A DNA stretch of 62,438 nt, filler included. It is 5 parts of 5 records of this genome, joined end to end, with 100 filler letters (N's around TTAATTAATTAA, not from the genome) between each part and the next. Parts side by side here need not be neighbours in the genome. Positions count along the whole stretch, not along the records: positions 36,944 to 50,994 come from SRR31156797_5536; 4 more parts are not named here. One strand, written 5' to 3'. The notes below the pieces were generated by a model. The model saw only the letters and a program-made list of their open reading frames with translations, was not told the DNA's origin and ran no database searches. The position numbers and the translations under genes are program-made. The number at the start of each line of letters is the position of its first letter. The first letter of the stretch is position 1. Below are positions 17,853 to 56,962 of this stretch, piece by piece.

Positions 17853-17859
17853 TTTTCAA

Positions 17860-21316: not shown

Positions 21317-21369
21317 TGGATTGCATTTTAATCGTTAGTTATTTATGCTCATACATCATACGAAATCCG

Positions 21370-22887: not shown

Positions 22888-22898
22888 GGTTTTCTTTT

Positions 22899-26174: not shown

Positions 26175-26179
26175 GAATA

Positions 26180-28967: not shown

Positions 28968-29282
28968 ATGAAAAGATTAGCTTTTAAAATGTACTTAAAT
29001 GAAGGTCAGAAAGAAATCTACAAAAAAAGACATAATAAAATATGGCCAGAATTAAAGAAATTATTAAAGGATGCTGGTGTTAGTGAATACTCCATTTTCC
29101 TGGATGAAGAAACAAACATTCTGTTTGCTTTTCAGAAAGTAAGTGGCGATGGAGGTTCTCAGGATTTAGGTCAGACTGAAATAGTGCAAAAATGGTGGAA
29201 ATTTATGGCTGATGTAATGAAAACAAACCCAGATAACTCACCTGTTTCTATTGAGCTGGAAGAAGTATTTTATATGGAATAG
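28968..29282 (+). CDS. rhaM: L-rhamnose mutarotase
   Basis: MKRLAFKM...YKKRHNKIWPEL...YSIFLD...WWKFMADVM.TNPDNSP...LEEVFYM. Confidence 0.95.
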   Translation: MKRLAFKMYLNEGQKEIYKKRHNKIWPELKKLLKDAGVSEYSIFLDEETNILFAFQKVSGDGGSQDLGQTEIVQKWWKFMADVMKTNPDNSPVSIELEEVFYME

Positions 29283-29307
29283 TCCAAATAAAACAAATGA
29301 ATTGATT

Positions 29308-29339
29308 AACGGGATTGAATTTCAATTCCGTTTTTTTTT
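29308..29339 (+). terminator. Terminator of rhaM
   Basis: AACGGGATTGA-ATT-TCAATTCCGTT followed by a T-run. Confidence 0.75.
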
Positions 29340-29343
29340 GCAT

Positions 29344-29381
29344 AAAAAAGCCGGCCTGTGCAAACACAGACCAGCTTTCTA
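29344..29381 (-). terminator. Terminator of transketolase
   Basis: Minus strand AAAGCTGGTCTGTG-TTTG-CACAGGCCGGCTTTTTT. Confidence 0.75.
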
Positions 29382-29398
29382 CTTTAAAACTAAAAAAA

Positions 29399-30026
29399 TT
29401 ATTTTAGAATCGACTTCACTTCGTTGTACACGTTTTCAGCAGTGAAACCGAATTTTTCATCTAATACTGTGTAAGGTGCAGAGTATCCGAAGTGTTTTAA
29501 ACCGGCTACTTTACCATCTGCTCCTACAAGACCTGCTAAAGTAACAGGAAGACCAGCAGTTAAACCGAACTTAGCCACACCTGCAGGTAAAACAGCTTGC
29601 TGATACGCAGCATCCTGCGACCTGAATAAACCTTCAGAAGGTGCAGATACGATTCTTACTTTTAATCCTTCAGCAATTAATTTTTCAGAACCTGCCACTA
29701 AAGTAGCTACTTCCGATCCACTTGCTAAAAGAATCACATCAGGAGTACCTTCGCAGTCTTGTACGATATATGCTCCTTTTTCTGCTTGTAAAGCTTCAGT
29801 ATAACGATCACCAGAAGCAGCAGGTAATTTTTTAATATTCTGACGAGAGAAAATCATACCTGTAGGTGTTTCTGTATTCTCTAATGCCATTTTCCATGCT
29901 ACAGTTGCTTCATCAGCATCAGCAGGACGTAAAACTAACATTGAGTTTTTACCTTTATGATTTTCTAACTGTTCCATTAATCTGATTTGAGCTTCTTGCT
30001 CAATTGGCTGGTGAGTAGGACCATCT
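29399..30026 (-). CDS. tkt: Transketolase, C-terminal part (5' truncated at contig end)
   Basis: Frame stays open to the gap: DGPTHQPIEQ...LRPADADE...SRQN...ASGSEV...FGYSAP. Confidence 0.92.
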
Positions 30027-30126
30027 NNNNNNNNNNNNNNNNNNNNNNNNNNNNNNNNNNNNNNNNNNNNTTAATTAATTAANNNNNNNNNNNNNNNNNN
30101 NNNNNNNNNNNNNNNNNNNNNNNNNN
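30027..30126. other. Artificial contig-joining spacer
   Basis: 100-nt N run with central TTAATTAATTAA. Confidence 0.98.
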
Positions 30127-36843: not shown

Positions 36844-36943
36844 NNNNNNNNNNNNNNNNNNNNNNNNNNNNNNNNNNNNNNNNNNNNTTAATTAATTAAN
36901 NNNNNNNNNNNNNNNNNNNNNNNNNNNNNNNNNNNNNNNNNNN
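36844..36943. other. Artificial contig-joining spacer
   Basis: N run with TTAATTAATTAA. Confidence 0.98.
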
Positions 36944-37204
36944 TTCATATTTCTATCTTCTGGTATTTTTCTCTTGCTTATATTATATTATTATGGGTGC
37001 TTTTGAGTCACTGCCTAAAACGATGATTCCTGAAATAGTAAAAAATAGCAAAGATATAATCAAAAATAGTTTAATAACCTATTTTAGTATATTATTATAG
37101 CGTATTTATATTAATAGGAATATATTATAATTAGTAGCATAATTAACCTATAGTATTCCCTCCAAAGTATAAACGAAAGATAAAATATAAGTGGTTTATG
37201 TTGT

Positions 37205-38266
37205 TTATTTGTATGGATATGCATATTTCATATTCTCATTGAATAATTCTATAAATTCATCTTCTTTCTCCAGGAAGCAGCCATGACCTGTATCATTTAT
37301 GACCAGCTCCTTATATTCACCGCCATTATCCTTATATTTATCCAGAACATAGCGAGTCTGTGATACCATTGGCTGAACAGGCATTTTGTTTTTGCCTGGA
37401 TATCCTGGTATTGCACCGATTTTACCAAGGAAAGGTAAATCATAATGCGAGGTATCAGATACAATAACATCGGAATCGCCTCTGAACCACAGTACATTAG
37501 GTTTATTCTTGATATCGGCTAACGCATCCAGTCTACAGTATTGAGGAGCAAGGGTATTATTAAATCCCTTAGTGCCAGGGAGTACATATGGGAACTCTGC
37601 AATCTGTACAAAATCACCAGCGTAGTAATCAGGTCCAATCTGCATATTAAATATTTCATCTAATAGGAATTCCTCGAACTCACTGTCTACAGTAAAGCCA
37701 GGCTTGAAGTAGTGATTATTCATAACAAAACGCATACTGCTCTGACCATCGCCTTTATCTTTAGTCTTTAAGGAATTCATAAAATCAGGATTTACAAAGC
37801 CGCCTCCTGAGCATGTTCCTTTGTCATCAAAAATTTTGCCGTCTACATCATATGTGCCGCCAAAGCCAAATGGAGATACAGGATTAATGAGTATTAAATT
37901 CTCCAGCTTTTGGCTGTACTCTATAGCGTAGCGCATCACGACACCGCCGCCTAATGACCAGCCAGCTAGTGAGAATTTGGTAAATCCTAGTGTGTCTGCC
38001 AGTGAGTCAATATCATTTGCCCAGTCCAGAAGTCCGGTTTCTCCGTTAACAGGAGAAGGCTCGGTATTGCCATAACCATTTAGGTCTGCTGCTACTACAT
38101 CATATTCATTGGACAGTCGTTGCATAAGCGGAAGATAGAATGCTGAGCTGGAAACATTGCCGTGCACTAAAATCAGCTTCTTATCATTGCCTTCACCTGC
38201 ACGGAAATAAGCTGTTTTTCTTTGTTTTGTCTCAATAAACTGTTTTTCATTGATATAATTTCTCAT
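37205..38266 (-). CDS. Alpha/beta hydrolase, resembling intracellular PHB-depolymerase/oligomer-hydrolase-type esterases
   Basis: VHGNVSS oxyanion region, GWSLGG nucleophile elbow, GDSD acid, TGH His. Confidence 0.8.
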   Translation of the reverse strand: MRNYINEKQFIETKQRKTAYFRAGEGNDKKLILVHGNVSSSAFYLPLMQRLSNEYDVVAADLNGYGNTEPSPVNGETGLLDWANDIDSLADTLGFTKFSLAGWSLGGGVVMRYAIEYSQKLENLILINPVSPFGFGGTYDVDGKIFDDKGTCSGGGFVNPDFMNSLKTKDKGDGQSSMRFVMNNHYFKPGFTVDSEFEEFLLDEIFNMQIGPDYYAGDFVQIAEFPYVLPGTKGFNNTLAPQYCRLDALADIKNKPNVLWFRGDSDVIVSDTSHYDLPFLGKIGAIPGYPGKNKMPVQPMVSQTRYVLDKYKDNGGEYKELVINDTGHGCFLEKEDEFIELFNENMKYAYPYK

Positions 38267-38330
38267 GATGTAAACTCCTTAAGTTTTTTATGTTTACTAA
38301 GCTCTAGTATATAAAAAATTATCTATAACA

Positions 38331-38501
38331 TGAAACATGAATCATGTATTGTAAATAACTATAACATACAAAAAATATCTCGTCAAGTTAGTAAAATTGT
38401 ATAAAAAATGCGGGAATTCACTTGACAAATAAAAAAATATATGTAAATATAAATTAGTGAAACATGATTCACTATTCATGTGAATTATGAATCACAATTC
38501 A
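38331..38501. promoter_or_regulatory. Divergent promoter region with three palindromic operators TGAA-N3-TGAWTCA-N3-TTCA
   Basis: 38331-38351 TGAAACATGAATCATGTATTG; 38458-38478 TGAAACATGATTCACTATTCA; 38481-38501 TGAATTATGAATCACAATTCA; TTGACA at 38422-38427. Confidence 0.7.
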
Positions 38502-38564
38502 GTTAAAAATTTCACAATCACTTAATGAAATATTTGGGTAATTCCCATATATCGGAGGTAGAAT

Positions 38565-39764
38565 ATGCGAACTTTCATTGTTGGAGCAAAAAGGACAGCA
38601 ACAGGCTCATTCCTAGGGACATTAAAGAGCACGCACCCTGCAGTAATGGGCAGCGAAGTAGTAAAGGCGCTGATGGCAGAAACCAATATTAAACCACAAG
38701 ATGTAGATGAATTAATCTGCGGTAATATTTTGAGTGCGGACTTGGGTCAGGGCATAGCAAGGCAGATAGCAGTAAATGCCGGAATCCCTCAGGAAATCTG
38801 TGCTTATAGTATTAACATGCTGTGCGGCAGTGGTCTGAAGGCTGTGCTAAATGCAGTGCAGAGTATAAAGTGCGGTTATGCAGATATCGTCATTGCAGGT
38901 GGTGCAGAAAATATGAGCTATTCACCTATGCTTATGCCAGGTAAGGTCAGAAGCGGCGCAAAGATGGGCGAGATTGCAATGAATGACCATATGGTAAAGG
39001 ATGCATTAACAGATGCTTTCTCTAATGTGCATATGGGTGTGACTGCAGAGAATATTGCAGAGAAATATGGCATTAGTCGCGCGGAGCAGGATGAGTTTGC
39101 ATTGAGTTCACAGAAGAAAGCTATATCAGCTGTTGATGCAGGTAGATTTATAGATGAAATTGTTCCATTGACTGTCAGAGTGGGAAAAAATATAGTGGAG
39201 TTCAAAGATGATGAGTATCCAAACAGAACAACTAATTTAGAGAAACTAGCGAAACTACGTACAGTGTTTAAAACAGATGGCACTGTGACAGCAGGCAATG
39301 CATCCGGAATAAACGACGGAGCTTCATTTGTTGCAGTAGTTAGCGAAGATGCACTGAAAAAATACAATCTAGAGCCAATGGGCGAAATCGTTGGCATAGG
39401 ACAGGGCGGAGTTGACCCACAGATTATGGGAATGGGGCCGGTACCAGCTATTAAATCTGTATTAAAAGATGCTGATATGAAGTTAGGCGACATGGAATTG
39501 GTTGAACTAAATGAAGCATTTGCGGCACAAAGCCTTGGAGTTGTCACTCAGTTGGTGGAAGACCATGGTGTAGACAGAGCGGAATTATTAGCAAAAACCA
39601 ATGTAAACGGCGGAGCTATTTCATTGGGTCATCCGGTTGGAGCCAGCGGTAATAGGATATTGGTTACGCTGCTGCATGAAATGAAAAAACGTGATAATAA
39701 ATTAGGACTTGCATCACTATGTATCGGTGGAGGCATGGGTGTAGCAGTAATTATTAAGAGATAA
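38565..39764 (+). CDS. Acetyl-CoA C-acetyltransferase (thiolase)
   Basis: NMLCGSGL, NEAFAAQ, GGAISLGHPVGASG, SLCIGGGMG. Confidence 0.95.
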   Translation: MRTFIVGAKRTATGSFLGTLKSTHPAVMGSEVVKALMAETNIKPQDVDELICGNILSADLGQGIARQIAVNAGIPQEICAYSINMLCGSGLKAVLNAVQSIKCGYADIVIAGGAENMSYSPMLMPGKVRSGAKMGEIAMNDHMVKDALTDAFSNVHMGVTAENIAEKYGISRAEQDEFALSSQKKAISAVDAGRFIDEIVPLTVRVGKNIVEFKDDEYPNRTTNLEKLAKLRTVFKTDGTVTAGNASGINDGASFVAVVSEDALKKYNLEPMGEIVGIGQGGVDPQIMGMGPVPAIKSVLKDADMKLGDMELVELNEAFAAQSLGVVTQLVEDHGVDRAELLAKTNVNGGAISLGHPVGASGNRILVTLLHEMKKRDNKLGLASLCIGGGMGVAVIIKR

Positions 39765-39778
39765 AAAGGAGAAATATA

Positions 39779-40498
39779 ATGAGACTTGAAGGAAAAACAG
39801 CAATTATTACCGGTGGTGCAAAAGGCATTGGTGAAGAAATGGCAAAGTTATTTGCGGCAGAAGGAGCAAAGGTTATAGCAGCTGACATGGCAGAGATGAC
39901 ATACGAAGCAGAGAATGTAGAGTATTTTAAGGCAAATGTAACTGACAGAGAAAGCTGTAAGGCACTATTTGACTTTGCAGTAGATAAATACGGCAAAGTA
40001 GATATTCTGGTAAACAATGCAGGTATTACAAGAGATGCATTGACTCGCAAGATGACTAATGAAATGTGGGATCTAGTAATAGATGTAAACTTAACAGGTA
40101 TATTCAATTTGACAAGACATGTCGGACCACATATGCAGGCAAACTGCGGCGGCAGTATTATCAATATATCAAGTGTAGTAGGTGTATACGGCAATATCGG
40201 TCAGGCAAACTATTCAGCTACAAAATCAGGCATAATGGGACTTACCAAAACATGGGCAAAGGAATTTGCTATGAAGGGTGGCAATGTACGTGTTAATGCA
40301 ATTGCACCGGGATATATAATGACAGATATACTAAAGACTGTTCCGCAGGAATTATTGGATAAATTCTCTGCAACAACCATGCTGGGCAGACTGGGTGAAC
40401 CGGAAGAAATCGCAAAAGTTGGACTATTTCTAGCAAGTGACGATGCCAGCTATGTAACGGGATGTATCTTGCAGGCAGACGGCGGTATGCGACTATAA
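39779..40498 (+). CDS. 3-oxoacyl-(ACP/CoA) reductase, FabG/PhaB-like SDR
   Basis: TGGAKGIG, NNAGITRD, SS, YSATK, NAIAPG. Confidence 0.92.
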   Translation: MRLEGKTAIITGGAKGIGEEMAKLFAAEGAKVIAADMAEMTYEAENVEYFKANVTDRESCKALFDFAVDKYGKVDILVNNAGITRDALTRKMTNEMWDLVIDVNLTGIFNLTRHVGPHMQANCGGSIINISSVVGVYGNIGQANYSATKSGIMGLTKTWAKEFAMKGGNVRVNAIAPGYIMTDILKTVPQELLDKFSATTMLGRLGEPEEIAKVGLFLASDDASYVTGCILQADGGMRL

Positions 40499-40510
40499 AA
40501 GGATATTACT

Positions 40511-41536
40511 ATGAGAAAAATTAACGTAGGAATAGTTGGAACTGGTATATATCTGCCGACATCTCGCATGACTGCTAAAGAAGTGTCACAAAAGACTAAC
40601 GGAGTCTGGGCAGAAGAGGCAGTAACTGCTAAGCTTGGTATTGTGAAAAAAATCATGCCAAGTGATGATGAGTGTGACGGCACGCAGGAAATGGGTGCAT
40701 TAGCTGCTATTGACTGTCTGAAAAGTACCGGAGTAAATCCAGAAGATATTGATGTAATCCTATGTATTGGTGAGGAGTGGAAGGAATATCCCTTGACCAC
40801 GTCTGCACTGTATATTCAGGATAGAATTGGTGCAGTGAATGCATGGGGCATAGATGTACAGAATAGATGCTGTACATGTGTGACAGCCATGAAGATGGCA
40901 AAGGATATGATGATAGCCGACGATGAAATCAATACTATCATGATTGTGGGCGGATACAGGAATGTGGACTTTATAGATTATTCTGACTCACAGGTATCAA
41001 TGATGTTTAACCTTGCAGCTGGCGGTGGTGCGTTGATACTAGAGAAGAATTATGATAAGAACCTCTTATTGGGTTCACACATAATATCTGACGGTTCTCT
41101 GGCAAGGACAGCTGGTGTAGAAATCGGCGGTACGGTAAATCCGTTTACTGCGGAAAACTTAGAAGAGGGTAAAAAGTCTCTGCGGCTGCTGGATGCAAAG
41201 CGTATGAAGGATAGATTGAATGCTGTATCTATGGATAACTGGATGGAATGTATAAATAAATCTGCTGCAAAGTCTCAATTAAATACCTCTGATATTTCAT
41301 ATCTTGCAATGCTTCACATCAAGCGAAGCGGCCATAAGTATATGCTGGATCAGCTGGGACTAAGTGATGAGCAGAGCATTTATCTAGAGAACTACGGACA
41401 CATTGGACAGATAGATCAGATATTATCTCTTCATCTTGCACTGCAGGAGAAGAAGGTAGTGGATGGAACTATCGTATGCATGCTGGCAGCTGGAATTGGC
41501 TATGTATGGGCAGCCAATATTATTCGCTGGGGGTAG
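40511..41536 (+). CDS. 3-oxoacyl-ACP synthase III-like (FabH-like) protein, atypical
   Basis: IVGTGIYLP start; QNRCC at the catalytic Cys; LHIKRS His; YGHIGQ where FabH has GNT; AGIGYVW. Confidence 0.85.
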   Translation: MRKINVGIVGTGIYLPTSRMTAKEVSQKTNGVWAEEAVTAKLGIVKKIMPSDDECDGTQEMGALAAIDCLKSTGVNPEDIDVILCIGEEWKEYPLTTSALYIQDRIGAVNAWGIDVQNRCCTCVTAMKMAKDMMIADDEINTIMIVGGYRNVDFIDYSDSQVSMMFNLAAGGGALILEKNYDKNLLLGSHIISDGSLARTAGVEIGGTVNPFTAENLEEGKKSLRLLDAKRMKDRLNAVSMDNWMECINKSAAKSQLNTSDISYLAMLHIKRSGHKYMLDQLGLSDEQSIYLENYGHIGQIDQILSLHLALQEKKVVDGTIVCMLAAGIGYVWAANIIRWG

Positions 41537-41539
41537 ATT

Positions 41540-42430
41540 ATGATAATGCAAACCATAATTCAGACAATATTAAGCAATGTACACTTAGCTGGTATATTGG
41601 TGCTGGCAACAACTGGAATTATGCTGGTATTCAGAACATCATATACCACCAACTTCGCTCAGGGCATGATGGCGATGGTAGGTGTATATACTGCAGCTAT
41701 TTTAATAACGAAATTTGAATTTAATCCATGGCTTAGTGTGCTTGCTGGTATATTAATTAGTTTCTTATTAGGATTATTCATCGATACTATGATTATAAGA
41801 AAAGCAAAGAATGTAAGTGTCGTGGGTAAGCAGATGATTACAATGGGGCTGGTAATAATCATTACTGCACTGACTCCATTGATTTTCGGCACAATTCCAT
41901 TTGAATTCAGCAGATTTATAGAGGGCAATTTGGAATTCTCTCTAGGCTCAATGGAATTGTACATCACAAAGAACGGACTGCTGACAATAGGCGTGGCGGC
42001 TGCAATAGTAACTGTAATATTTATCGCTCTGTACTTCACCAAATGGGGACTGGGCGTTCGTGCTACGGCATCCAATGAAAAGGTAGCTAGCATGATGGGT
42101 ATCAATACCAGAGTAATAACAGCTATGAGCTGGTCAATAGCAGGTGGCTGTGGCTCAGTAGCAGCAATCCTATTGGCATCACAGACAGGGCAGGTAGAGA
42201 CAACTATGATGACATCTATTCAGGTTAACGGATTCTTGGCATCAGTACTTGGCGGCTTCTCATCATTCTATGGACCAATAATTGGTGCGCTTATTATACC
42301 GATAGCAAAGGCACTGATAGCAATATTTAACAGCCTGTGGGCAAGCGTAATACTATATTCTGCAATATTGTTAGTCATTCTTATTAAGCCAATTGGGCTC
42401 TTCGGCAAGAAGATAAACAAGAAGGTGTAG
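41540..42430 (+). CDS. Branched-chain amino acid-type ABC permease (LivH-like)
   Basis: NFAQG, TKWGLGVRATASN..VASMMGIN, VLGGFSS. Confidence 0.9.
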   Translation: MIMQTIIQTILSNVHLAGILVLATTGIMLVFRTSYTTNFAQGMMAMVGVYTAAILITKFEFNPWLSVLAGILISFLLGLFIDTMIIRKAKNVSVVGKQMITMGLVIIITALTPLIFGTIPFEFSRFIEGNLEFSLGSMELYITKNGLLTIGVAAAIVTVIFIALYFTKWGLGVRATASNEKVASMMGINTRVITAMSWSIAGGCGSVAAILLASQTGQVETTMMTSIQVNGFLASVLGGFSSFYGPIIGALIIPIAKALIAIFNSLWASVILYSAILLVILIKPIGLFGKKINKKV

Positions 42431-42435
42431 GTGAA

Positions 42436-43524
42436 GTGATGATTAATGAATATAGAGAAGAAAAAAGAAAGATACGAAAAGCAAAACTCAAAGCTATTAC
42501 ATCTAATCCGCTCTTTGGATTTGTAATATTAATGCTGGCACTGATTGCCGTACAACTGATATTTATGTATACAGACGATATTATCAGCCTAACAGTGTCA
42601 AAGGCTATAGCACAGACATTGATATATGCAATAGTCGGCATGGGATTCTCCATCCTGCTAGGGTATGCAGGTCTGGCATCACTGGGAACGGCAGGATTCG
42701 TTGGACTTGGAAGCTATATAGCTGGTAATATGCTCAAATCTATTCCACTGCCAATACCATACATTCTGGTACTTGCAGCAGTTGTAGTAGCCGGCATTAT
42801 CCTTGGCGGCGTGGTAGGGTTTATCTCACTGCGCATTGAGGGAATGTATCTGGCTATTATCACACTGGGATTATCAGAAATATTACTGGAACTATTTAAA
42901 ACACCAAATGACTTTACAGGCGGCGCATCAGGGCTAAAATCAGTACCTTGGGTGAAGCTGGCCACATTCTATGATATGAACAGAGAGAGGATGTATTTCC
43001 TTATACTTGGCGTACTGTTTGTGATGATAGTCTTAACCATTAATATTATTAATAGCCCAACAGGCAGAGCAATGCTTGCCATGAAGAACTCTTCATCAGC
43101 CGCACAGGCAATGGGAATATCTATATTAAAATATAGACTGCTGGCATTCATACTGGCAACTATCTATGCCATGATAGGTGGAGCACTGTATGTAACATAC
43201 CTGCGTGCATCCAACACATCATCATGGACACTGGCATTATCACTCAATGTATTAGCGGCTGTTATAATCGGCGGTTCACGTTCTATATGGGGTGTAATCA
43301 TGGGGTCATTTGTAATATTTGGACTGGATTTAGCTGTTTTAAAAAACATTGATTTCTTTAACAAGTATTCCGGTTCATCAGCAATATTTTCCGGTGTACT
43401 GATAGTACTAATTGTTATGTTCTACCCCGGCGGACTAATTCGACTGTTTACCAATACTAGGCTAAAGATAAAAGCAGGGGTTCACAAATGGAAGGTGTAT
43501 AGATATGGCAAAGATTACAAGTAA
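42436..43524 (+). CDS. Branched-chain amino acid-type ABC permease (LivM-like)
   Basis: GYAGLASLG, LRIEGMYLAIITLG, SPTGRAMLAMK, PGGL. Confidence 0.9.
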   Translation: MMINEYREEKRKIRKAKLKAITSNPLFGFVILMLALIAVQLIFMYTDDIISLTVSKAIAQTLIYAIVGMGFSILLGYAGLASLGTAGFVGLGSYIAGNMLKSIPLPIPYILVLAAVVVAGIILGGVVGFISLRIEGMYLAIITLGLSEILLELFKTPNDFTGGASGLKSVPWVKLATFYDMNRERMYFLILGVLFVMIVLTINIINSPTGRAMLAMKNSSSAAQAMGISILKYRLLAFILATIYAMIGGALYVTYLRASNTSSWTLALSLNVLAAVIIGGSRSIWGVIMGSFVIFGLDLAVLKNIDFFNKYSGSSAIFSGVLIVLIVMFYPGGLIRLFTNTRLKIKAGVHKWKVYRYGKDYK

Positions 43525-44944
43525 TATCAATATGACTAGGATGACTACCCAAAGGGACAAAGCCCTGCAGAACATAAAATTTAATGACAGTTACCTATCT
43601 ATTGCAAAGGATGAATTGAAGGAAAAAAGCGATAGAAAGCTGTATAAAAGAGAATTGAATACAAAGCGTTCTCTGCTGGCACTGGAAAAAAAGTCAATGT
43701 CGGAAAATAAATCTCTGGAATATGATTATCAGAAGGCACTGAAAAAGCTGTATGAAAAGCAGCACCTGCCTAGGCTGGCAGTGGAACAGAAATATAAAAG
43801 AATGCAGGAAGCTGGCAGCGAAAAGGCAGAGTATTATAAGAAAAATGCTTTGGCAAAGCTGGATGATGCAATAAAAGAATTAAAAGATAAATGGACCAAA
43901 AGGGTTAATGAAGCAGATACTAAAGTAGATGAATCAGTTGCTGTGGCTTATAAAGAAAAGTCAGAAACTGTAAAGGTTAAGCTGGATAAATTACGAGAAA
44001 GCTTGGAGAAGAAAAATCAGGAAAAGATAGAGAGACTTAATAAAAAGACTGCAAAAGAAAATGCGAAATTAAAGGATAGAGCTGAAAAATATAATACAAA
44101 GATAGACCAACTAAATACCGATACAGAATCTGCAATGAAAGAAAAGGATACTGTGTTGGAAGTAGAAGAGCTGCTGATGCTTTTTGATGGATTAAGAGCA
44201 GTGGATGGGCTTAGCTTTAAGGTAAAAGAAGGCGAGATTTTCGGTCTGATAGGTCCAAACGGCGCCGGTAAAACAACTGTATTTAACTGCATCACACAGT
44301 TCAACAAACCAAGCGGTGGTAGGATACACTATCGCAGTGCAAGCGGTGAAGTAATCGATGTTACAAAGAAAAAAGTACATGACATAGTAAAAATCGGCAT
44401 AGTAAGGACATTCCAGAATTTAGAGCTTATATGGGAACTTAGTGTACTTGACAATATGCTAATCGGAGCACATTCATTGTACAATGCCAACCTTTTTGAT
44501 CACATTATCCGCACACGCAAGCTAAAGCGTGAAGAAAAGATAATGAAAAATAGAGCACTTGACGTTCTTGAAAGACTTAATCTATTGGTATACAAGGACA
44601 TGATTCCATATGGTCTGCCATATGGAATACTAAAGAGGATTGAGCTGGCAAGGACATTAATGGTAAATCCAAGGCTTATTATACTGGATGAACCTGCAGC
44701 AGGACTAAACGAAGCGGAAACTGAGGAATTGGCAGAGACCATCTGTAAAATAAAAGAAGACTATGGATGCACAATATTTTTGGTTGAGCACGACATGGGG
44801 CTGGTTATGGATATATGTGATACGGTTTGTGCCATTTCCTTTGGTAAGCTGCTGGCTGTCGGTAAGCCTGGTGATATTCAGGAAAATGAATTGGTACAGG
44901 AGGCATATCTGGGTGGAACAATGACGGAGGACGATGATGAGTAG
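43505..44944 (+). CDS. ABC ATPase (LivG-like) with about 210-aa N-terminal coiled-coil extension
   Basis: GPNGAGKTT, RTFQN, LPYG, LDEPAAG, VEHDM; K/E-rich helical N-terminus. Confidence 0.88.
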   Translation: MAKITSNINMTRMTTQRDKALQNIKFNDSYLSIAKDELKEKSDRKLYKRELNTKRSLLALEKKSMSENKSLEYDYQKALKKLYEKQHLPRLAVEQKYKRMQEAGSEKAEYYKKNALAKLDDAIKELKDKWTKRVNEADTKVDESVAVAYKEKSETVKVKLDKLRESLEKKNQEKIERLNKKTAKENAKLKDRAEKYNTKIDQLNTDTESAMKEKDTVLEVEELLMLFDGLRAVDGLSFKVKEGEIFGLIGPNGAGKTTVFNCITQFNKPSGGRIHYRSASGEVIDVTKKKVHDIVKIGIVRTFQNLELIWELSVLDNMLIGAHSLYNANLFDHIIRTRKLKREEKIMKNRALDVLERLNLLVYKDMIPYGLPYGILKRIELARTLMVNPRLIILDEPAAGLNEAETEELAETICKIKEDYGCTIFLVEHDMGLVMDICDTVCAISFGKLLAVGKPGDIQENELVQEAYLGGTMTEDDDE

Positions 44945-45662
44945 TATATTGAGAATTGATAACCTCGTCGTAGACTATGGATATATCAGAGCCATAAAAG
45001 GAATTGATATGAATGTAGATAAAGGCAATATTGTGGCTATTCTCGGTGCTAATGGTGCAGGTAAGAGCACGATAATACGCACTGTATCTGGCATTGTAAA
45101 GGCGAAAAGTGGCAGTATCAAATTTGATGGTGAGCCAATAACAAACAAAGAAGTTTACAAGATTGCTAAAAAGGGAAGTATTCAGTCTCCTGAGGGACGA
45201 ATGATATTAGCTGGACTAACTACAGAGGAGAACCTTCGGGTAGGGGCGTACAGCATCCGTTCAAAGACTCAGGTTAATAGAAATCTAGAGGAAGTATTTA
45301 ATTACTTCCCAGTCTTAAAGGATAGAAGAAAACAGCAGGCAACAACACTCTCCGGTGGTGAACAGCAGATGTTAGCAATAGGTAGAGCATTGATGAGCAA
45401 ACCAAAGTTATTACTGCTGGATGAACCGTCACTAGGACTGGCACCAATTATAGTACGGGATATATTCTCTATACTAAAGAGGATAAAGGACGAGGGCACA
45501 ACGATATTAATCGTAGAACAGAATGCATATCAGACTCTGAAAATAGCAGATTACGCATATGTATTGGAACTTGGAAAGATAAAAACAGAGGGAACAGGGA
45601 AACAGCTATTGACAGAGGAATCATTGTTTGCAGCATATCTGGGAAAGAGAAACAAAAAATAG
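44934..45662 (+). CDS. ABC ATPase (LivF-like)
   Basis: GANGAGKST, PEGR, LSGGEQQM, LDEPSLGLAP, VEQN. Confidence 0.93.
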   Translation: MMSSILRIDNLVVDYGYIRAIKGIDMNVDKGNIVAILGANGAGKSTIIRTVSGIVKAKSGSIKFDGEPITNKEVYKIAKKGSIQSPEGRMILAGLTTEENLRVGAYSIRSKTQVNRNLEEVFNYFPVLKDRRKQQATTLSGGEQQMLAIGRALMSKPKLLLLDEPSLGLAPIIVRDIFSILKRIKDEGTTILIVEQNAYQTLKIADYAYVLELGKIKTEGTGKQLLTEESLFAAYLGKRNKK

Positions 45663-45721
45663 GAACAAACCGGGCAACCGGATGTTATAAGGAAACAAAG
45701 AAGTGTAAAAAGGAGAAAAAT

Positions 45722-47062
45722 ATGAAGAGTACAAAAATCGCAAAAATTCTTATTATGATGATGGTACTAGTACTGGCTTTTACAGCATGTGCTAAGGAAG
45801 AAGCAGAAGAACCAATGGAAACAAAGGCACCAGAAGCAACTGAAGAAAAGGTAGAAGCAACTGAAGAACCAATGGAAGAATACTCACAAGGTGTTACAGA
45901 TACTACTATTACAGTTGGTAACACAGCAGCAGTATCCGGCGCATTGGCAGTAGTAGGCGTACCATTCAACGATGCTATCATGGCATACTTCAAGATGATT
46001 AATGATGCAGGTGGTGTAGGCGGTAAGACAATTGAATTCATAACATATGACGATGGATTTGACGGAGCAACAGGCGCAGCACTGACTGAAAAATTAGCAG
46101 AAGAAGACGAAGTATTTGCCCTAGTAGGTCACTTCGGTACACCAACAGTATCAGCTACAGTAGATTACATCGGCGAATACGGCATTCCAATGGTATATGC
46201 AGCAACAGGTATCAATGCACTGTACTTTGAGGAAAGCTCAATGAACCCAATCATGGCAGTACAGCCAATCTACAAGACTGACGGTCGCATCATGGCAGCT
46301 CGTACATTCCACGAAGCACTATTTGGCGATGCTAAACTAGCAGATGACGCTAAAGTAGGCGTACTATATACAAATGATGATGCAGGTTCATCAATCTTAG
46401 AGGGTGTTCAGGCACAGGCAATGGACGACGGTAAAGATGCAAACCTAGTAGTTGAAGCAGTAGCAGAAGGCACATATGCAACAGCTGTACAAAAACTAAA
46501 GGATGCAGGCGTATCAGCAGTAATCCTGGCTATGAACCAAGCTCCATTCAAGGAATCATTGGTTGCTATGGATGACGCAGGACTGGAAGTACCTGTATTC
46601 ACATCATACGTAAATGCTGACGTTACAGCAGTAGACCATACTAAGTACTCTGAAGCACGTCCAATCTATACAAATGCATGGGTAGACGTATTCAGCGAAA
46701 AGGGGCAAGAGGATGCAGGTGCATACGTCGCATGTATCGCTCAGGCTGATTTGGCAGACGATGTAAAGGAAGCATACTACACTAACTCATTCGCAACAGC
46801 AGGCTATATAGCAGCTGTAGTATTTGTAGAAGGATTGAATAGAGTAGAGGCAAACGGCGACGTGTTAACATGGGATAACTACATCAAGGCTATGGAAGAA
46901 GGCCCAATAGACATTCCTATGGGCGGTACTGTAGACTTCTCCGACGGACATCGCTGGGGCATTGACTCAATGAGCTTATTGCAATACACTGTAGATGGCG
47001 AAGAGGAAGCATTCGTCAAGGTTCGTGAAATCGAAGTATTGGGCGATATCGCAGCTAAGTAA
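45722..47062 (+). CDS. ABC substrate-binding lipoprotein (LivJ/PBP1 type)
   Basis: Lipobox LAFTAC, E/A/T/P-rich linker, INDAGGVGGKTI..YDD, VFALVGHFGT. Confidence 0.9.
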   Translation: MKSTKIAKILIMMMVLVLAFTACAKEEAEEPMETKAPEATEEKVEATEEPMEEYSQGVTDTTITVGNTAAVSGALAVVGVPFNDAIMAYFKMINDAGGVGGKTIEFITYDDGFDGATGAALTEKLAEEDEVFALVGHFGTPTVSATVDYIGEYGIPMVYAATGINALYFEESSMNPIMAVQPIYKTDGRIMAARTFHEALFGDAKLADDAKVGVLYTNDDAGSSILEGVQAQAMDDGKDANLVVEAVAEGTYATAVQKLKDAGVSAVILAMNQAPFKESLVAMDDAGLEVPVFTSYVNADVTAVDHTKYSEARPIYTNAWVDVFSEKGQEDAGAYVACIAQADLADDVKEAYYTNSFATAGYIAAVVFVEGLNRVEANGDVLTWDNYIKAMEEGPIDIPMGGTVDFSDGHRWGIDSMSLLQYTVDGEEEAFVKVREIEVLGDIAAK

Positions 47063-47082
47063 GACTAATTAACAATAATAAT

Positions 47083-47104
47083 GGGGGAACGTACAGTTTC
47101 CCCC
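47083..47104 (+). other. Stem-loop after the binding-protein gene (partial terminator or mRNA stabiliser)
   Basis: GGGGGAAC-GTACA-GTTTCCCCC with no U-tract. Confidence 0.5.
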
Positions 47105-47126
47105 GCAGACATTAAGAGGTGAAGCT

Positions 47127-48449
47127 ATGAGTTATAATTATAGTAATAAAGTTATTTCACTAAATGAAGCACTAAATTTGGTAAAACCTAATGACTATAT
47201 AGTTACCGGTATGTGTATAGCAGAGGCTGTGGATTTCATGACACATCTGCACACCATTGCCGATAAAGTAGAGAATGTAGCAGTGTCCAACTGTATTCCG
47301 ATGGCGGACTATGAGTTCTTTTCCAACCCAGAATACAGAAGTAAATTTATGGTGGAAACATGGTTCTACACTGCGTCACTGCGCAGATTCCACAAGAACG
47401 GTAATGTATCATTCATTCCAAATCATCTGCACTTTGCAGCTACAAAGAGACTACACTTTAAAAAGCCAAATATCTACGTTGGAGCAGCATGTATGCCCGA
47501 TAAACACGGCAACATTTCACTAAGCCTTAGCACCTGCTACGAAAAAGAAATAATGGAAGAAGCAGACACAATAATATTAGAAATCAATCCGAACTTCCCA
47601 AGGACATTCGGTGATATACAAGTTCATGTAGACGATGTAGACTATCTGATCGAAGCTGACTATGAACCATTTGCATTACCTGAGACACCAATAAATGAAA
47701 AGGACAAAATCATCGGTAAATATATAGCTGACTTAATCGATGACGGTTCATGTATTCAGCTGGGCATTGGTGGCATACCAAATGCAGTAGCCGAAGCTCT
47801 GGTTGACAAGCAAGACTTGGGTGTTCATACAGAAATGTTCTCTGATGGTATAATGAGGCTGTACAAAGCTGGAGCGATTACAGGTAAATACAAGCAGATG
47901 AACAAGGGTAAGATGATTGCGACATTTGCCATGGGTTCAAAGGAACTGTATGATTTTCTCGATGACAACCCAATGATTGAGTTTCTAAATGGTTCAAATA
48001 CAAATGACCCATATGTAATAGCAAAAAATGATAATCAAGTATCTATTAATACATCGCTTGAAGTTGATTTGACAGGTCAGTGTGCCAGTGAATCGCTGGG
48101 TTCAATTCAATTCAGCGGTACAGGTGGTCAGTCTGACACTGCTGTTGGTGCACAGAACTCCAAGGGCGGCAAATCATTTATCGCTCTGTACTCTACAGCT
48201 ATGGTTCGCAACAAGGAAACAGGCATGAAGGAAGAAATGAGCAAGATAGTATCTCAACTAAAAAGAGGTGCAGCGGTATCACTATCCAGAAATGATGTAG
48301 ACTACGTAGTTACTGAATATGGCGTAGCTGCACTACGTGGTACCAGCATAATGGAGAGAGTTGACAGGCTGATAGCTATAGCCCATCCTAAGTTCAGAGA
48401 ACAGCTGATTGAAGAGGCGAAAAGCTTAGGTTTGATTTATGAGAGGTAA
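47127..48449 (+). CDS. Acetyl-CoA hydrolase/transferase family (4-hydroxybutyrate CoA-transferase-like)
   Basis: QLGIGGIPNAV, GVHTEM, EVDLTGQ, GTGGQ.D, VVTEYGVA.LRG, IAHPKFRE. Confidence 0.92.
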   Translation: MSYNYSNKVISLNEALNLVKPNDYIVTGMCIAEAVDFMTHLHTIADKVENVAVSNCIPMADYEFFSNPEYRSKFMVETWFYTASLRRFHKNGNVSFIPNHLHFAATKRLHFKKPNIYVGAACMPDKHGNISLSLSTCYEKEIMEEADTIILEINPNFPRTFGDIQVHVDDVDYLIEADYEPFALPETPINEKDKIIGKYIADLIDDGSCIQLGIGGIPNAVAEALVDKQDLGVHTEMFSDGIMRLYKAGAITGKYKQMNKGKMIATFAMGSKELYDFLDDNPMIEFLNGSNTNDPYVIAKNDNQVSINTSLEVDLTGQCASESLGSIQFSGTGGQSDTAVGAQNSKGGKSFIALYSTAMVRNKETGMKEEMSKIVSQLKRGAAVSLSRNDVDYVVTEYGVAALRGTSIMERVDRLIAIAHPKFREQLIEEAKSLGLIYER

Positions 48450-48451
48450 GT

Positions 48452-49267
48452 ATGAGTAAATTTACATTTCAGGGGAAAGAGGTGTTTTACGAGGTAAAAG
48501 GAGAAGGCAAACCTCTAATAATCCTTAATGGTATCATGATGTCCACCAGAAGCTGGGCACCATTTGAGGAGCATTTTACAAGAGATAATATGCTAATTCT
48601 GCTGGATTTACTGGATCAGGGACAGAGCGACAAGATGACGGAACACTTTACCCAGAGTATACAGGTGGAGGTAGTAGTTGCACTGCTGGATGAACTAAAG
48701 CTGGATAAGGTATCATTTATCGGTACATCATATGGTGGTGAGGTAGCACTACAATTTGCTGCAAAGTATTCTGACAGGGTCCACAGGCTGGTACTGGCAA
48801 ATACGGTTGCCAAGACCAATGCATGGCTAAGAGAAATTGGCGAAGCATGGAATCACGCTGTGATAAATCCTGATGCGTATTACTGCACAACTATTCCTAC
48901 TATATATTCACCTCGTTACTATGAGAGAAAGAAAGACTGGATGGCAGGAAGGAAGGAGATTCTAACAAAGACTGCATTTGCCAACAAGAACTTCTTGGAC
49001 AGCATGGTCAGACTGACTAACTCAGCTAATGACCATGACGTGACAGCTGATCTGCCTAATATCACAGCACCAACGATGATAATAGGATGCGAGCAGGACC
49101 ATATTACACCGCAGGAGGAGCAGAGATATCTGGCACAGCATATGCCAAATGCAGAGTTAGTGATACTTCCGGAGACTGGTCACGCGGCATTCTATGAGCG
49201 ACCATACTTGTTTACGGCTATCGTGCTGGGATTTATTAATCTCTATGATGCGAAAATTGATATTTAG
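48452..49267 (+). CDS. Alpha/beta hydrolase (enol-lactonase/esterase-like)
   Basis: LNGIMM, GTSYGG, EQD acid, TGH His. Confidence 0.88.
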   Translation: MSKFTFQGKEVFYEVKGEGKPLIILNGIMMSTRSWAPFEEHFTRDNMLILLDLLDQGQSDKMTEHFTQSIQVEVVVALLDELKLDKVSFIGTSYGGEVALQFAAKYSDRVHRLVLANTVAKTNAWLREIGEAWNHAVINPDAYYCTTIPTIYSPRYYERKKDWMAGRKEILTKTAFANKNFLDSMVRLTNSANDHDVTADLPNITAPTMIIGCEQDHITPQEEQRYLAQHMPNAELVILPETGHAAFYERPYLFTAIVLGFINLYDAKIDI

Positions 49268-49334
49268 TGAAAGAAACCACAATATGTGATATAATTAAAT
49301 TCACTTTTCAAAGAAACTAACACAGGAGGAAACA

Positions 49335-49952
49335 ATGGCTGTCGTAAATATAACAGAACCTAAAACTAAGAGAGGACTCGCAACAAGGAATAAAATCATG
49401 AAGGCTGCAGAGCGTCTTTTTGGAGAGAAAGGTTATTATAATACGTCTATAAACGACATTGCGGTAAAGGCAAAAGTCGCTCCTGGAACATTATATATAT
49501 ATTTCAAGGATAAATATACTCTTTATCAGTATTTGGTATCTGAGTATAGTCATCTGCTGCGCAGTGAGATAGCTAAGAAGATAAAAGAGACTAACTGCAT
49601 GAGTAGGCGTGAAAAGGAAAGAGTCGGTATACTGTGCTACTTGCAAATTATACAGGAACATCCGCATATTTATAATATTATCTGGGAATCGCTTCATGTG
49701 GATAAGAAACTATTTGTTGATTACTATCATAAATTTTCGAAAAATTATCAGAAAAATCTGAATAAGGCGTATAAAGATGACGAAATATACGAATTTGACA
49801 ATGAAATAGTATCATATATTTTAATGGGTATATCCAGCTTTATCGGACTAAGGTATGTGACATTTGAGCAGAATGTTGATTTGGAAATTGTAGTTGATGA
49901 GATAATGAGATTCCTTGATAATGGGTTGTTTAAGAGCGATACCTTAGAGTGA
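49335..49952 (+). CDS. TetR/AcrR family transcriptional regulator
   Basis: IMKAAERLFGEKGYYNTSINDIAVKAKVAPGTLYIYFKDK HTH. Confidence 0.93.
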   Translation: MAVVNITEPKTKRGLATRNKIMKAAERLFGEKGYYNTSINDIAVKAKVAPGTLYIYFKDKYTLYQYLVSEYSHLLRSEIAKKIKETNCMSRREKERVGILCYLQIIQEHPHIYNIIWESLHVDKKLFVDYYHKFSKNYQKNLNKAYKDDEIYEFDNEIVSYILMGISSFIGLRYVTFEQNVDLEIVVDEIMRFLDNGLFKSDTLE

Positions 49953-50530
49953 TGAGAGTAGTTAGTTGGAACTCAATTTATAATAATGAACTTAGTATTG
50001 ATTAAAATGATGAATTGCCTTGAAAAGTTGGCATATAATTAAGTGAGATCTGTAATGGTCAATAAAAATCAGACAATGTTAAGGAATTTAAGAATTTTCC
50101 AATTCGAATTGTGCTGAAATCAGGTATTCAAATGAAGATTGTGCTCTTTGTGTATTGTAATACAATCAATTTTTAAAACAGCAATCTGATTCTGTACAGG
50201 CGATTTGTAATTAACTTCTTTGACAATTTAACCATTGGTAGTCATTAACTTCTTCCCGATCTAGTACTAATCGTACTTCTTTATTGATACCAAAATTTTC
50301 AATTACCACAAATAATGTATATATTATAAACAAACTAGATAATAAAGCGTACAATAACTTAAACTAATAAGTTTAGGTTATCTTTTGATTTACCGAGTGG
50401 GAGTAAAAGTATAATCCCAGTGGCTTACTGATGTTAAACAAACAAAATAGGCCTGTAAATATTTTTTACGTTAAGTAAGAATACTGGCTTGTAAGAATAA
50501 ATGCTAAGTAGTTATCTTTGCATACTATTA

Positions 50531-50994
50531 TTATATGGTTGGTATTCTATTAAACAGCTCTTTTTTTGAAGATACATCAAGTTTAGAATATATATGTTTA
50601 ACGTGGGTTTTAACAGTATTTAAGCTTATATTCATTTCTGATGCCATTTGATTATACGTATATTTATTGAGCAGTAGTATTAATATATCTGTTTCTCTGT
50701 TAGTTAACGAATATGATTTCGCTATCTGTTCAATGCTTTTTCTATCTTGCTCAACTGATAGATTACTCCTATACATGTTTATGCATTTATCTACTATATT
50801 ATTATAAAGTGTGGGAATCAATAAAATTCCAATAACTGCAGAGATAGAAGCAACGGCAAAGAATACTGAAATGGCACCGATATTGTCATATGAGTTGATA
50901 GTACAAGTGTAGCCGATAAATGTCGCAATAGAGTTGCTGCCTATTGAACATGTAACAAGGAGAAAAGAACGCTTATAAACAATATTAAGCATTA
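50531..50994 (-). CDS. Membrane-anchored LuxR-type HTH regulator, C-terminal fragment
   Basis: Hydrophobic segments then LTNRETDIL...ISLNTVKTHVKHIYSKLDV; runs into the gap. Confidence 0.85.
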
Positions 50995-51094
50995 NNNNNN
51001 NNNNNNNNNNNNNNNNNNNNNNNNNNNNNNNNNNNNNNTTAATTAATTAANNNNNNNNNNNNNNNNNNNNNNNNNNNNNNNNNNNNNNNNNNNN
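50995..51094. other. Artificial contig-joining spacer
   Basis: N run with TTAATTAATTAA. Confidence 0.98.
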
Positions 51095-56862: not shown

Positions 56863-56962
56863 NNNNNNNNNNNNNNNNNNNNNNNNNNNNNNNNNNNNNN
56901 NNNNNNTTAATTAATTAANNNNNNNNNNNNNNNNNNNNNNNNNNNNNNNNNNNNNNNNNNNN
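56863..56962. other. Artificial contig-joining spacer
   Basis: N run with TTAATTAATTAA. Confidence 0.98.

Follow-up and report, generated by a model that had tools for sequence, protein, structure and literature searches.

Results

Gene content of the operon

The stretch of DNA analysed here (62,438 nucleotides, filler included; referred to as the window) carries between positions 37205 and 49952 an operon, in which acyl-CoA enzymes, an ATP-binding cassette (ABC) importer and ester hydrolases surround an atypical FabH-like enzyme that we call KAS3L. A first-pass annotation, made from the letters alone, had described this region as a self-contained import and catabolism system, possibly for 3-hydroxybutyrate oligomers or other hydroxyacyl esters. 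It had listed a thiolase, a reductase, the FabH-like enzyme, a five-gene importer, a CoA-transferase, an esterase, a TetR regulator and a divergent esterase. Scans with Pfam and NCBIfam profiles placed all twelve genes of this list at their coordinates and gave a strong family match for each of them (Table 1). The genes on the + strand are as tightly packed as had been claimed, and their spacing ranges from −20 (overlap) to +67 nucleotides. Among the open reading frames scanned in the assembly piece that bears the operon, there was no match to acyl carrier protein (ACP), FabD or FabZ, which agrees with the initial description. A terminator-like scan detected a G+C-rich stem-loop inside the operon, and this structure may be an mRNA-stabilising or attenuating element.

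Table 1. Features of the operon, of the assembly piece that carries it and of its surroundings (positions in the window)
Feature	Position	Strand	Remarks
Piece with polysaccharide-utilisation locus	1..30070		Bacteroidota type
Six-frame stop linker TTAATTAATTAA, four copies	30071..30082; 36888..36899; 51039..51050; 56907..56918
Assembly piece bearing the operon	36900..51038		14.1 kb, TTAATTAATTAA at both ends
abh1, divergent alpha/beta hydrolase	37205..38266	−	Pfam Abhydrolase_1; related to Bacillus-type intracellular PhaZ
Divergent control region	38267..38564		Three copies of a palindrome-like box, candidate TetR operator
Exact copies of the box TGAAWNATGAWTCA	38331..38344; 38458..38471; 38481..38494
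Acetyl-CoA C-acyltransferase (thiolase II type)	38565..39764	+	Thiolase_N 312 bits, Thiolase_C 151 bits
Classical short-chain dehydrogenase/reductase, 3-hydroxyacyl/3-oxoacyl oxidoreductase, predicted NAD(H) type	39779..40498	+	adh_short_C2 215 bits
KAS3L, KAS III-fold enzyme, PRK06840 family	40511..41536	+	NF005308 459.6 bits
Acidic loop of KAS3L	40772..40792		Residues 88-94
ABC permease, LivH/UrtB-like	41540..42430	+	BPD_transp_2 104 bits
ABC permease, LivM/UrtC-like	42436..43524	+	BPD_transp_2 109 bits
ABC ATPase, LivG-like, with charged N-terminal extension of about 210 residues	43505..44944	+	ABC_tran, residues 234-398
Extension of the LivG-like ATPase	43505..44140		Lys/Glu-rich, includes LPRLAVEQ motif
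ABC ATPase, LivF-like	44934..45662	+	ABC_tran 106 bits
Lipoprotein substrate-binding protein	45722..47062	+	Peripla_BP_6 121 bits
G+C-rich stem-loop between binding-protein and CoA-transferase genes	47083..47104	− (as reported)	Terminator-like scan
Family I CoA-transferase, 4-hydroxybutyrate/butyryl-CoA:acetate type	47127..48449	+	AcetylCoA_hyd_C 199 bits
abh2, cytoplasmic alpha/beta hydrolase, carboxylesterase type	48452..49267	+	Abhydrolase_1 93 bits
TetR-family regulator, last gene of the operon	49335..49952	+	TetR_N 57.8 bits
Small GerE/LuxR-type regulator	50531..50992	−	Right end of the operon piece, 46 nucleotides from the linker

Thiolase, oxidoreductase, CoA-transferase and importer

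The thiolase matched both thiolase domains and exceeded the cut-off of the family model TIGR01930 (451.6 bits vs. 240.55), but it stayed below that of the PhaA equivalog (331 bits vs. 740). The second gene, a short-chain dehydrogenase/reductase (SDR), had been called a FabG/PhaB-like reductase and this designation did not hold. The enzyme scored 238 bits with the acetoacetyl-CoA reductase model PhaB (TIGR01829; cut-off 302.1), 265.6 bits with the FabG model TIGR01830 (cut-off 297.75) and 273 bits with a FabG equivalog (cut-off 296), and all of these scores are just below the cut-offs. Inspection of the cofactor-binding region indicated an aspartate (Asp36) at the end of beta-strand 2, and this residue was invariant in 64 of 64 orthologues. 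According to the classical SDR rule, an aspartate at this position marks NAD preference. We therefore classify the SDR, on the basis of this motif, as NAD(H)-type and not as PhaB/FabG-type enzyme, and with this signature an oxidative role would fit better than a PhaB/FabG role.

For the CoA-transferase, both the N- and the C-terminal AcetylCoA_hydro domains of Pfam were found above cut-off and the protein matched PDB entry 3eh7 with 323 bits. With the more specific model TIGR03948 it reached 305.7 bits (cut-off 674.8). By these matches the enzyme is a member of the superfamily and probably belongs to the group of 4-hydroxybutyrate and butyryl-CoA:acetate CoA-transferases.

All five parts of a HAAT/LIV-type importer were recognized (two BPD_transp_2 permeases, two ABC ATPases and a Peripla_BP_6 protein). 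Reading the N-terminus of the binding protein by eye, we found a LAFTAC lipobox followed by an acidic linker. The family-level names of the transporter genes (LivHMGF-like) could suggest an ordinary importer for leucine, isoleucine and valine that merely sits among acyl-CoA enzymes. However, the binding protein scored only 32.1 bits with the LivJ-type model NF011933 (cut-off 477), the liv genes overlap or abut the enzyme genes, and in other phyla a symporter of another family takes the same place in the cluster (see below). Thus, we consider a role as branched-chain amino acid importer extremely improbable.

The LivG-like ATPase carries an unusual N-terminal extension (Table 1). It can be aligned from end to end, with a single gap, to the orthologue at a related locus (L014), and it is kept in frame there and in the closest related operon (L002, see below). 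At many other loci, the ATPase domain is likewise separated from the permease gene by additional length.

KAS3L, the FabH-like core enzyme

KAS3L belongs to the PRK06840 family. It was recognized by the corresponding model (NF005308, named '3-oxoacyl-ACP synthase') over residues 4-341 with a score well above the cut-off of 315 bits (Table 1), whereas it reached only 93.1 bits with the fabH model TIGR00747, the cut-off of which is 292.1. In two HMMER alignments with FabH, the nucleophilic cysteine was found at the same position. In contrast, the FabH asparagine is replaced by His297 (YGHIGQ vs. YGNTSA), the position of the FabH histidine is occupied by a leucine, and His269 of KAS3L is located four residues downstream of that position. 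The Cys-His-Asn triad of FabH is absent from KAS3L. When we compared 25 sequences from several phyla, the mean column identity was 72% and the residues invariant in all 25 included E88, E89, K91, E92, Y93, R119, C120, H269, K271, S273, G296, H297, G299, Q300, D302 and Q303.

Structural modeling with AlphaFold2 gave a mean predicted local distance difference test (pLDDT) value of 91.7, and values below 50 were confined to residues 91-94. The best fold match was FabHA of Bacillus subtilis (Z 38.0), tied with BioZ (Z 37.5) and PqsBC. Since all KAS III enzymes score between Z 36 and 38, the fold of KAS3L does not tell its function. FabH shares fold (Z about 38) and cysteine with KAS3L, but FabH functions in the context of ACP and fatty-acid synthesis, of which the KAS3L piece has nothing. 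Moreover, a canonical FabH above cut-off is encoded elsewhere in all three cluster-carrying genomes. Judged by these features, KAS3L is clearly not a FabH and not a housekeeping enzyme, and the view of an atypical FabH-like protein could be confirmed. Its database names are the generic '3-oxoacyl-ACP synthase' everywhere, including the ESM Atlas clusters, and this name is almost certainly wrong.

The invariant acidic loop (E88-E89-W-K91-E92-Y93) is a separate peculiarity of the family. By a motif alignment, its first residue, Glu88, may sit where hydroxymethylglutaryl-CoA (HMG-CoA) synthases have their catalytic glutamate. The idea of HMG-CoA-synthase-like aldol chemistry via Glu88/Glu89 was dropped because this alignment was its sole basis.

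More informative was the comparison with KAS III-fold enzymes of polyketide clusters (CerJ, ChlB3 and DpsC; PDB 3S3L, 7EQI and 5WGC), which share the fold with KAS3L. According to PMC9573744, ChlB3 has an active site of Cys113, His296 and Asp301, the listed CerJ mutants are located at C116, H295 and D301, and the condensing enzyme DpsC employs a Ser-His-His set with His266 and His297. The same paper describes the formation of oxygen esters by KAS III-fold enzymes like CerJ, with CoA thioesters as starting material (PMC9573744). By spacing (a cysteine followed by a His-x4-Asp pair) and numbering, C120/H297/D302 of KAS3L would fit C113/H296/D301 of ChlB3 as given there, and at the level of HMMER alignment ranges the two proteins are colinear (6-337 vs. 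6-336). Sequence similarity to these enzymes is weak (E-values of 2e-5 to 9e-4), KAS3L keeps His269 and the invariant acidic loop in addition, and its context is catabolic whereas the CerJ/ChlB3/DpsC type belongs to polyketide clusters. When the PDB was searched with the C-terminal 81 residues of KAS3L, CerJ ranked sixth and the two top rows were spurious matches to repeat proteins. From these data it appears likely that C120, H269, H297 and D302 are equivalent to the active-site positions of CerJ, ChlB3 and DpsC. Such a set of residues would be compatible with acyl transfer and, via the two histidines, with condensation as well.

A condensing KAS3L would make the locus a biosynthetic operon. 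In that case an imported short acid would be converted to its CoA ester, KAS3L would use this ester for a primer condensation, and reduction by the SDR would lead to an unusual lipid, a signal or a 3-hydroxy acid. BioZ, which is among the tied best fold matches, is a KAS III enzyme that receives its substrate from a CoA-transferase, and the order of synthase, ketoreductase and, in part, dehydratase genes echoes fatty-acid synthesis. The conserved Cys120, His269 and His297 also recall the Ser-His-His set of the condensing DpsC mentioned above. These similarities have to be weighed against the NAD-type motif of the SDR, the lack of ACP, FabD and FabZ among the scanned reading frames, the additional canonical FabH in the three carrier genomes, and the hydrolases, which are kept in 30 of 36 informative loci and are exported in other phyla. 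Moreover, an importer combined with an inducible, TetR-controlled arrangement is typical of catabolism. For these reasons, we consider a biosynthetic function quite improbable.

Hydrolases and a probable link to polyhydroxybutyrate

For the divergent hydrolase abh1, both motifs named by the first-pass annotation were found, HGN (in LVHGNVSS) and GWSLG (in AGWSLGG), and inspection of the N-terminus by eye did not reveal a signal peptide. When a profile built from 14 orthologues was searched against the PDB, the best solved match was the polyhydroxybutyrate (PHB) depolymerase PhaZ of Bacillus thuringiensis (8ynv; 117.4 bits, E 5.6e-33), and the next entry scored 74.3 bits. The alignment covered profile positions 10-237 and chain residues 25-253, and both the HGN(x)SS and the GWS(L/M)GGGVAM segments line up. 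The AlphaFold2 model of abh1 (mean pLDDT 85.8) led to the same structure, with Z 32.0 and a root-mean-square deviation of 2.7 Å over 273 aligned residues at 25% identity, and the next fold matches were generic esterases (Z 28.5). These data show that abh1 is related to the Bacillus-type intracellular PhaZ and that the B. thuringiensis enzyme is, by a clear margin, its nearest solved relative. Thus, the proposed PhaZ link of this protein stood as far as the nearest relative in profile and fold is concerned, but not as membership in the PhaZ family defined by NF050089 (see Discussion).

The second hydrolase, abh2, shows GTSYGG, aspartate and histidine motifs in its sequence. Its closest solved match over the full length was MGS-M2 (PDB 4q3l; 291.6 bits, E 5.5e-86).

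Additional hydrolases were found at related loci. Gram-negative versions encode lipoprotein alpha/beta hydrolases (signal peptides and lipoboxes were read by eye from the N-termini). Distant forms of the cluster add a secreted Lipase_2 protein, for which the PHB depolymerase PhaZ7 was the only near-full-length solved match (residues 93-367 vs. 34-316; E about 5e-4 to 1e-3). The minimal cluster of Wukongibacter contains a secreted Lipase_2 protein that is 65% identical to the copy of the distant form. A gene for a MaoC-family hydratase adjoins the operon in 18 of 80 related loci and in two of four distant forms. The MaoC family includes (R)-specific enoyl-CoA hydratases, and together with the SDR this enzyme points to 3-hydroxyacyl-CoA intermediates, for which the two would provide two known kinds of conversion.

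Neither PhaC_N nor a class III/IV polyhydroxyalkanoate (PHA) synthase was matched above cut-off in three cluster-carrying genomes (G202, G203 and G204). A substrate of the polyester type would thus have to come from outside the cell, in line with the scavenging that had been considered before.

PhaA-like, PhaZ-like and PhaJ-like (MaoC) parts without a PhaC might also belong to a storage-polyester cycle that runs without a classical synthase. Here KAS3L would polymerise hydroxyacyl-CoA, a reaction for which the ester-forming CerJ-type enzymes provide an analogy, and mobilisation of the polymer would fall to the PhaZ-like hydrolases. However, importer and CoA-transferase are constant partners of KAS3L, the exported hydrolases of the Gram-negative versions fit an outside substrate, the SDR is of NAD type, and we saw neither a phasin nor any sign of granules. 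Such a cycle therefore appears very improbable.

Conservation of the operon

We scanned one genome per species with KAS3L and found 413 loci that encode a relative. The best 80 of these (KAS3L identity 61-83%) were kept and the twelve window proteins were mapped onto them. Since many of the contigs are short, the resulting counts are lower bounds. The loci originate from Christensenellales, other Clostridia, Erysipelotrichaceae, Acholeplasmataceae/Izemoplasmatales-like assemblies, Bacteroidales, Ignavibacteriota and others, and according to the record titles they come from gut, digester and sediment assemblies. Among all 80 loci, we detected the SDR in 67, the thiolase in 54, the CoA-transferase in 51, an abh2-like hydrolase in 47 and at least three liv genes in 44.

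Thirty-six of the 80 loci have long flanks (at least 7 kb upstream and at least 8.5 kb downstream). In this subset CoA-transferase and SDR were each present at 33 loci, the thiolase at 31, an abh2-like hydrolase at 30, the binding protein at 25, at least three liv genes at 24, the TetR regulator at 23 and abh1 at nine. Thiolase, SDR and CoA-transferase occurred all together in 28 of the 36. The neighbourhood survey that the first-pass annotation had proposed, seeded with the protein encoded at 40511-41536, hence recovered the same gene set around the relatives, and the outcome that would have refuted its reading, genes not conserved together, did not occur. Because 413 loci carry a KAS3L relative and the gene set recurs around it, the association is far beyond chance. 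The operon is real and widely conserved.

The closest operon was found in a Christensenellaceae assembly (L002), where the proteins are 65-87% identical one by one and the flanks are unrelated. The KAS3L family model NF005308 was exceeded in 32 of 401 sampled genomes of this phylum. It was exceeded in two of 201 sampled genomes of the phylum of G001, a genome that resembles another part of the window (see below), and in none of 14 control genomes.

Exchange of transporters and CoA-activating enzymes

Inspection of the variants indicated that single parts of the system can be exchanged. In Bacteroidota and Ignavibacteriota loci (16 of 80), a sodium:solute symporter (L019 type) is present in place of the ABC system, and two Wukongibacter loci of the 80 have a different symporter. 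Similarly, a gene for an AMP-forming ligase occupies the usual position of the CoA-transferase in five of 80 loci. In Ignavibacteriota this acyl-CoA ligase gene lies between the symporter gene and KAS3L, and when the window proteins were mapped, no CoA-transferase match was found at these ligase-type loci. Bacteroidales show the order thiolase, SDR, sodium:solute symporter, CoA-transferase, second KAS III paralogue, KAS3L, two exported proteins and lipoprotein alpha/beta hydrolase. The smallest forms consist of symporter, KAS3L and CoA-transferase (Wukongibacter, L020) or of regulator, KAS3L and CoA-transferase (L044, L031).

Two unrelated transporters and two unrelated makers of CoA thioesters at the same positions point to the uptake of a carboxylic acid, or of an ester from which one is released, and to subsequent activation with CoA. 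The proposed logic of import, CoA activation, oxidation and thiolysis gains support from these exchanges. The gene context further argues for KAS3L acting on the CoA ester that the activating enzyme would make.

Three other pathways were considered and rejected. A malonate decarboxylation cycle (CoA-transferase plus decarboxylating KAS) has no ATP yield, which is at odds with ABC import or AMP-ligase activation, and it leaves SDR, thiolase and esterases without a role. For a lower phloroglucinol/triacetate pathway the number of enzymes fits, but the loci did not show a reductase or cyclohydrolase context, and the hydrolases are suggestive of PhaZ. Secondary metabolism of the olefin or quinolone type clashes with the importers and with the wide conservation.

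Several components are specific to the variants. The second KAS III paralogue (L019, 8982-9989) is about 25% identical to KAS3L and stays below all curated cut-offs. Equivalents lie beside or near KAS3L in 17 Bacteroidota/Ignavibacteriota loci and also at L036 and L037, and none is present in the operon of the window. The two exported proteins of Gram-negative versions are a small lipoprotein and a protein of about 460-510 residues without Pfam or NCBIfam match (L019, 11196-13767; L035, 11046-13152). The larger, porin-like one is kept in 17 of 80 loci, and the two could possibly cooperate in taking up the same substrate across the outer membrane.

We also examined distant forms of the cluster, in which KAS3L is 34-53% identical, from four genomes. 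One of them (L112, positions 7239-17513 in genome G314) is a distant PRK06840 cluster in a 5.6-Mb genome of 34% G+C. Its order is TetR, AMP-ligase, MaoC, KAS3L (34% identical), a secreted double NHL/SGL beta-propeller, binding protein and livGFHM, and this variant may use a lactonase-type enzyme.

These forms bear on the nature of the substrate. The same logic of uptake, activation and breakdown could serve another ester, lactone or beta-keto acid. Examples would be a polyketide-like di- or tri-keto acid, the lactone of a hydroxy acid or acetoacetate, and KAS3L could then be a retro-Claisen enzyme acting on a special 3-oxoacyl-CoA. The thiolase superfamily catalyses both Claisen and retro-Claisen chemistry. 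Lactonase-like secreted beta-propellers occur in the distant forms (NHL/SGL at L112, SGL at L019), abh2 and its relatives score best with models of 3-oxoadipate enol-lactonases and C-C hydrolases, albeit all below cut-off, and the binding protein varies between loci. On the other hand, a PHB depolymerase is the nearest solved relative of abh1 by a clear margin, the secreted lipase matches PhaZ7 near full length, although weakly (22 bits), and neither a cyclohydrolase nor a BKACE enzyme was seen in the annotated loci. We regard a different substrate as possible but rather unlikely, and 3-hydroxybutyrate and its oligomers remain our preferred candidates.

Regulation

The 298-nucleotide divergent region between abh1 and the thiolase gene contains three exact copies of the box TGAAWNATGAWTCA (Table 1). 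When one mismatch was allowed, seven matches were counted in the window, six of them in the divergent region, as compared with 1.3 expected. In about 21 of the 80 related loci, the same box precedes the first gene of the operon by no more than about 400 nucleotides, and any match was observed in 26 of 80 (raw counts). The TetR protein gave weak matches to acyl-CoA-sensing regulators of the FadR, FasR and PsrA types, all below cut-off. The box is a candidate TetR operator, which would tie abh1 to the operon.

Composition of the window

The window does not represent a single contig. The six-frame stop linker TTAATTAATTAA was detected four times (Table 1), a number that was reached by none of 100 shuffled sequences, and the bases beside two of the copies read as n. 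The linkers also separate genes that are cut off. At 30071 a C-terminal fragment of a transketolase faces a C-terminal fragment of AcrB, at 56907 a partial rpoC faces a histidine kinase that begins inside its HisKA domain, and at both sites the open frames of the truncated genes reach right up to the linker. The G+C content differs as well (0.39-0.42 in the operon piece vs. 0.26-0.29 in the piece to its left). The window thus is composed of five assembly pieces joined by TTAATTAATTAA linkers.

This has consequences for two earlier claims. Because the operon lies alone on its 14.1-kb piece, statements about the 'contig' reach no further than positions 36900-51038, and the description as self-contained and the lack of a PHA synthase on the contig refer to this piece. 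Since the pieces are joined, the genes of neighbouring pieces are uninformative on the host of the operon.

The first piece contains a polysaccharide-utilisation locus with two RGL11 rhamnogalacturonan lyases that carry type IX secretion system (T9SS) sorting tails, two SusC/SusD pairs and fasciclin-domain proteins. Genome G001 is 96% identical to this piece over the first 20 kb and the match runs on to about 30026. Beyond 30 kb nothing resembles G001; the elongation factor EF-G, for instance, is only 66% identical at the DNA level. G001 was therefore rejected as stand-in host, since it matches only positions 1 to about 30026 and nothing in the operon piece, and for the same reason its missing KAS3L and PhaC_N are uninformative on the host of the operon. 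The assembly may mix organisms.

Discussion

A proposed catabolic operon for 3-hydroxybutyrate and its oligomers

With a probability that we put at about one half, the operon serves the TetR-repressed catabolism of an external short hydroxyacyl ester or acid, most likely (R)-3-hydroxybutyrate and its oligomers, i.e. PHB fragments from other cells. Lipoprotein binding protein and ABC transporter would import the oligomers or monomers, and two cytoplasmic serine hydrolases, the PhaZ-related abh1 and the carboxylesterase abh2, would cut the ester bonds. In the CoA-transferase reaction, acetyl-CoA would then donate its CoA to the free carboxyl group. The NAD-type SDR would oxidise 3-hydroxybutyryl-CoA to acetoacetyl-CoA, and the thiolase would convert the latter to two molecules of acetyl-CoA. 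Where a MaoC hydratase is present, crotonyl-CoA might act as electron sink. The substrate of KAS3L would be the CoA ester that the transferase forms, and as a best guess the enzyme would move an acyl group between an oxygen ester and a thioester instead of catalysing a condensation of the FabH type. Gene content, conservation, family memberships, the PhaZ relation of abh1 and the NAD-type motif were observed. What the substrate is, in which order the steps occur, in which direction the flux runs, what KAS3L does and whether TetR acts via the repeated box are matters of inference. Compared with the first-pass annotation, the gene set, its co-conservation, the pathway logic and the relation to PhaZ stood up to this analysis, whereas the PhaB-type reductase and the claims made for the whole contig had to be given up.

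A number of observations weigh against this interpretation. Both hydrolases score far below the cut-off of the PhaZ model NF050089 (300 bits), with which abh1 reached 111 bits in a match confined to residues 14-137 and abh2 74.7 bits. The closest solved relative of abh2 is a metagenomic esterase without known natural substrate, and the PhaZ7 match of the secreted Lipase_2 protein is weak (22 bits). The identity of the binding protein varies between 28 and 80% among loci, which leaves room for different ligands. To judge from the record titles, the gut is the habitat of many carriers, and PHB is not an obvious main substrate there. As ABC import costs ATP, a plain hydrolytic route to acetate would be a poor energy source. 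Finally, a KAS III enzyme would be superfluous in a plain 3-hydroxybutyrate route, but KAS3L ranks with the best conserved proteins and is the one that invariably accompanies the CoA-activating enzyme. The model therefore leaves a central part of the system unexplained.

A bolder proposal would fill this gap. KAS3L might be a new kind of enzyme of the thiolase superfamily that uses CoA in place of water to cleave oxygen-ester bonds, which is the reverse of the PHA synthase reaction. The CoA-transferase would cap the free carboxyl end of the imported oligomer, and KAS3L would load the acyl chain on Cys120 and pass it to CoA. Every ester bond would thus be conserved as thioester, with one 3-hydroxybutyryl-CoA per bond. 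By our own arithmetic, such a cleavage would raise the yield from two to three acetyl-CoA per imported dimer. If true, this would explain the inseparable core of KAS3L and CoA-activating enzyme and would make an ATP-driven importer affordable for fermenters. PhaZ1 of Ralstonia eutropha, which is not known as a thiolase-superfamily enzyme, offers a parallel. It releases 3-hydroxybutyryl-CoA from PHB chains with CoA, as cited in PMC3430594, and this thiolytic release would be a precedent for the role suggested here. Nevertheless, we consider the proposal unlikely.

Relation to known systems

The Bacillus-type PhaZ (8YNV/8YNW; NF050089) resembles abh1 in its full-length fold, the HGN oxyanion motif, the GWSxGGGVAM nucleophile elbow and the cytoplasmic location, but abh1 is about 50 residues longer and stays below the family cut-off. 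MGS-M2 (4Q3L) resembles abh2 over its full length. With the PHB cycle and 3-hydroxybutyrate catabolism, the operon has in common a thiolase, a 3-hydroxyacyl/3-oxoacyl oxidoreductase and ester hydrolases. It differs by the NAD-type SDR, activation via a 4-hydroxybutyrate-type CoA-transferase, the core of importer and KAS III-fold enzyme, and the scores below the PhaA and PhaB cut-offs.

A full-text literature search, which most subscription journals lie outside of, did not retrieve a published description of this gene set, and to that extent the earlier statement that no characterised pathway is known for it agrees with our search. What appears new here is an undescribed KAS III-fold core enzyme in a probable catabolism of the PHB/3-hydroxybutyrate type, which is itself already known.

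Few bacterial storage compounds are as common as PHB and related polyesters, which are also a leading bioplastic. To our knowledge, the genes by which strict anaerobes consume these polyesters have not been described so far, and the operon described here is a concrete candidate for such a route. The true reaction of KAS3L, once found, would correct thousands of annotations, and with this enzyme the thiolase superfamily may gain a new type of reaction.

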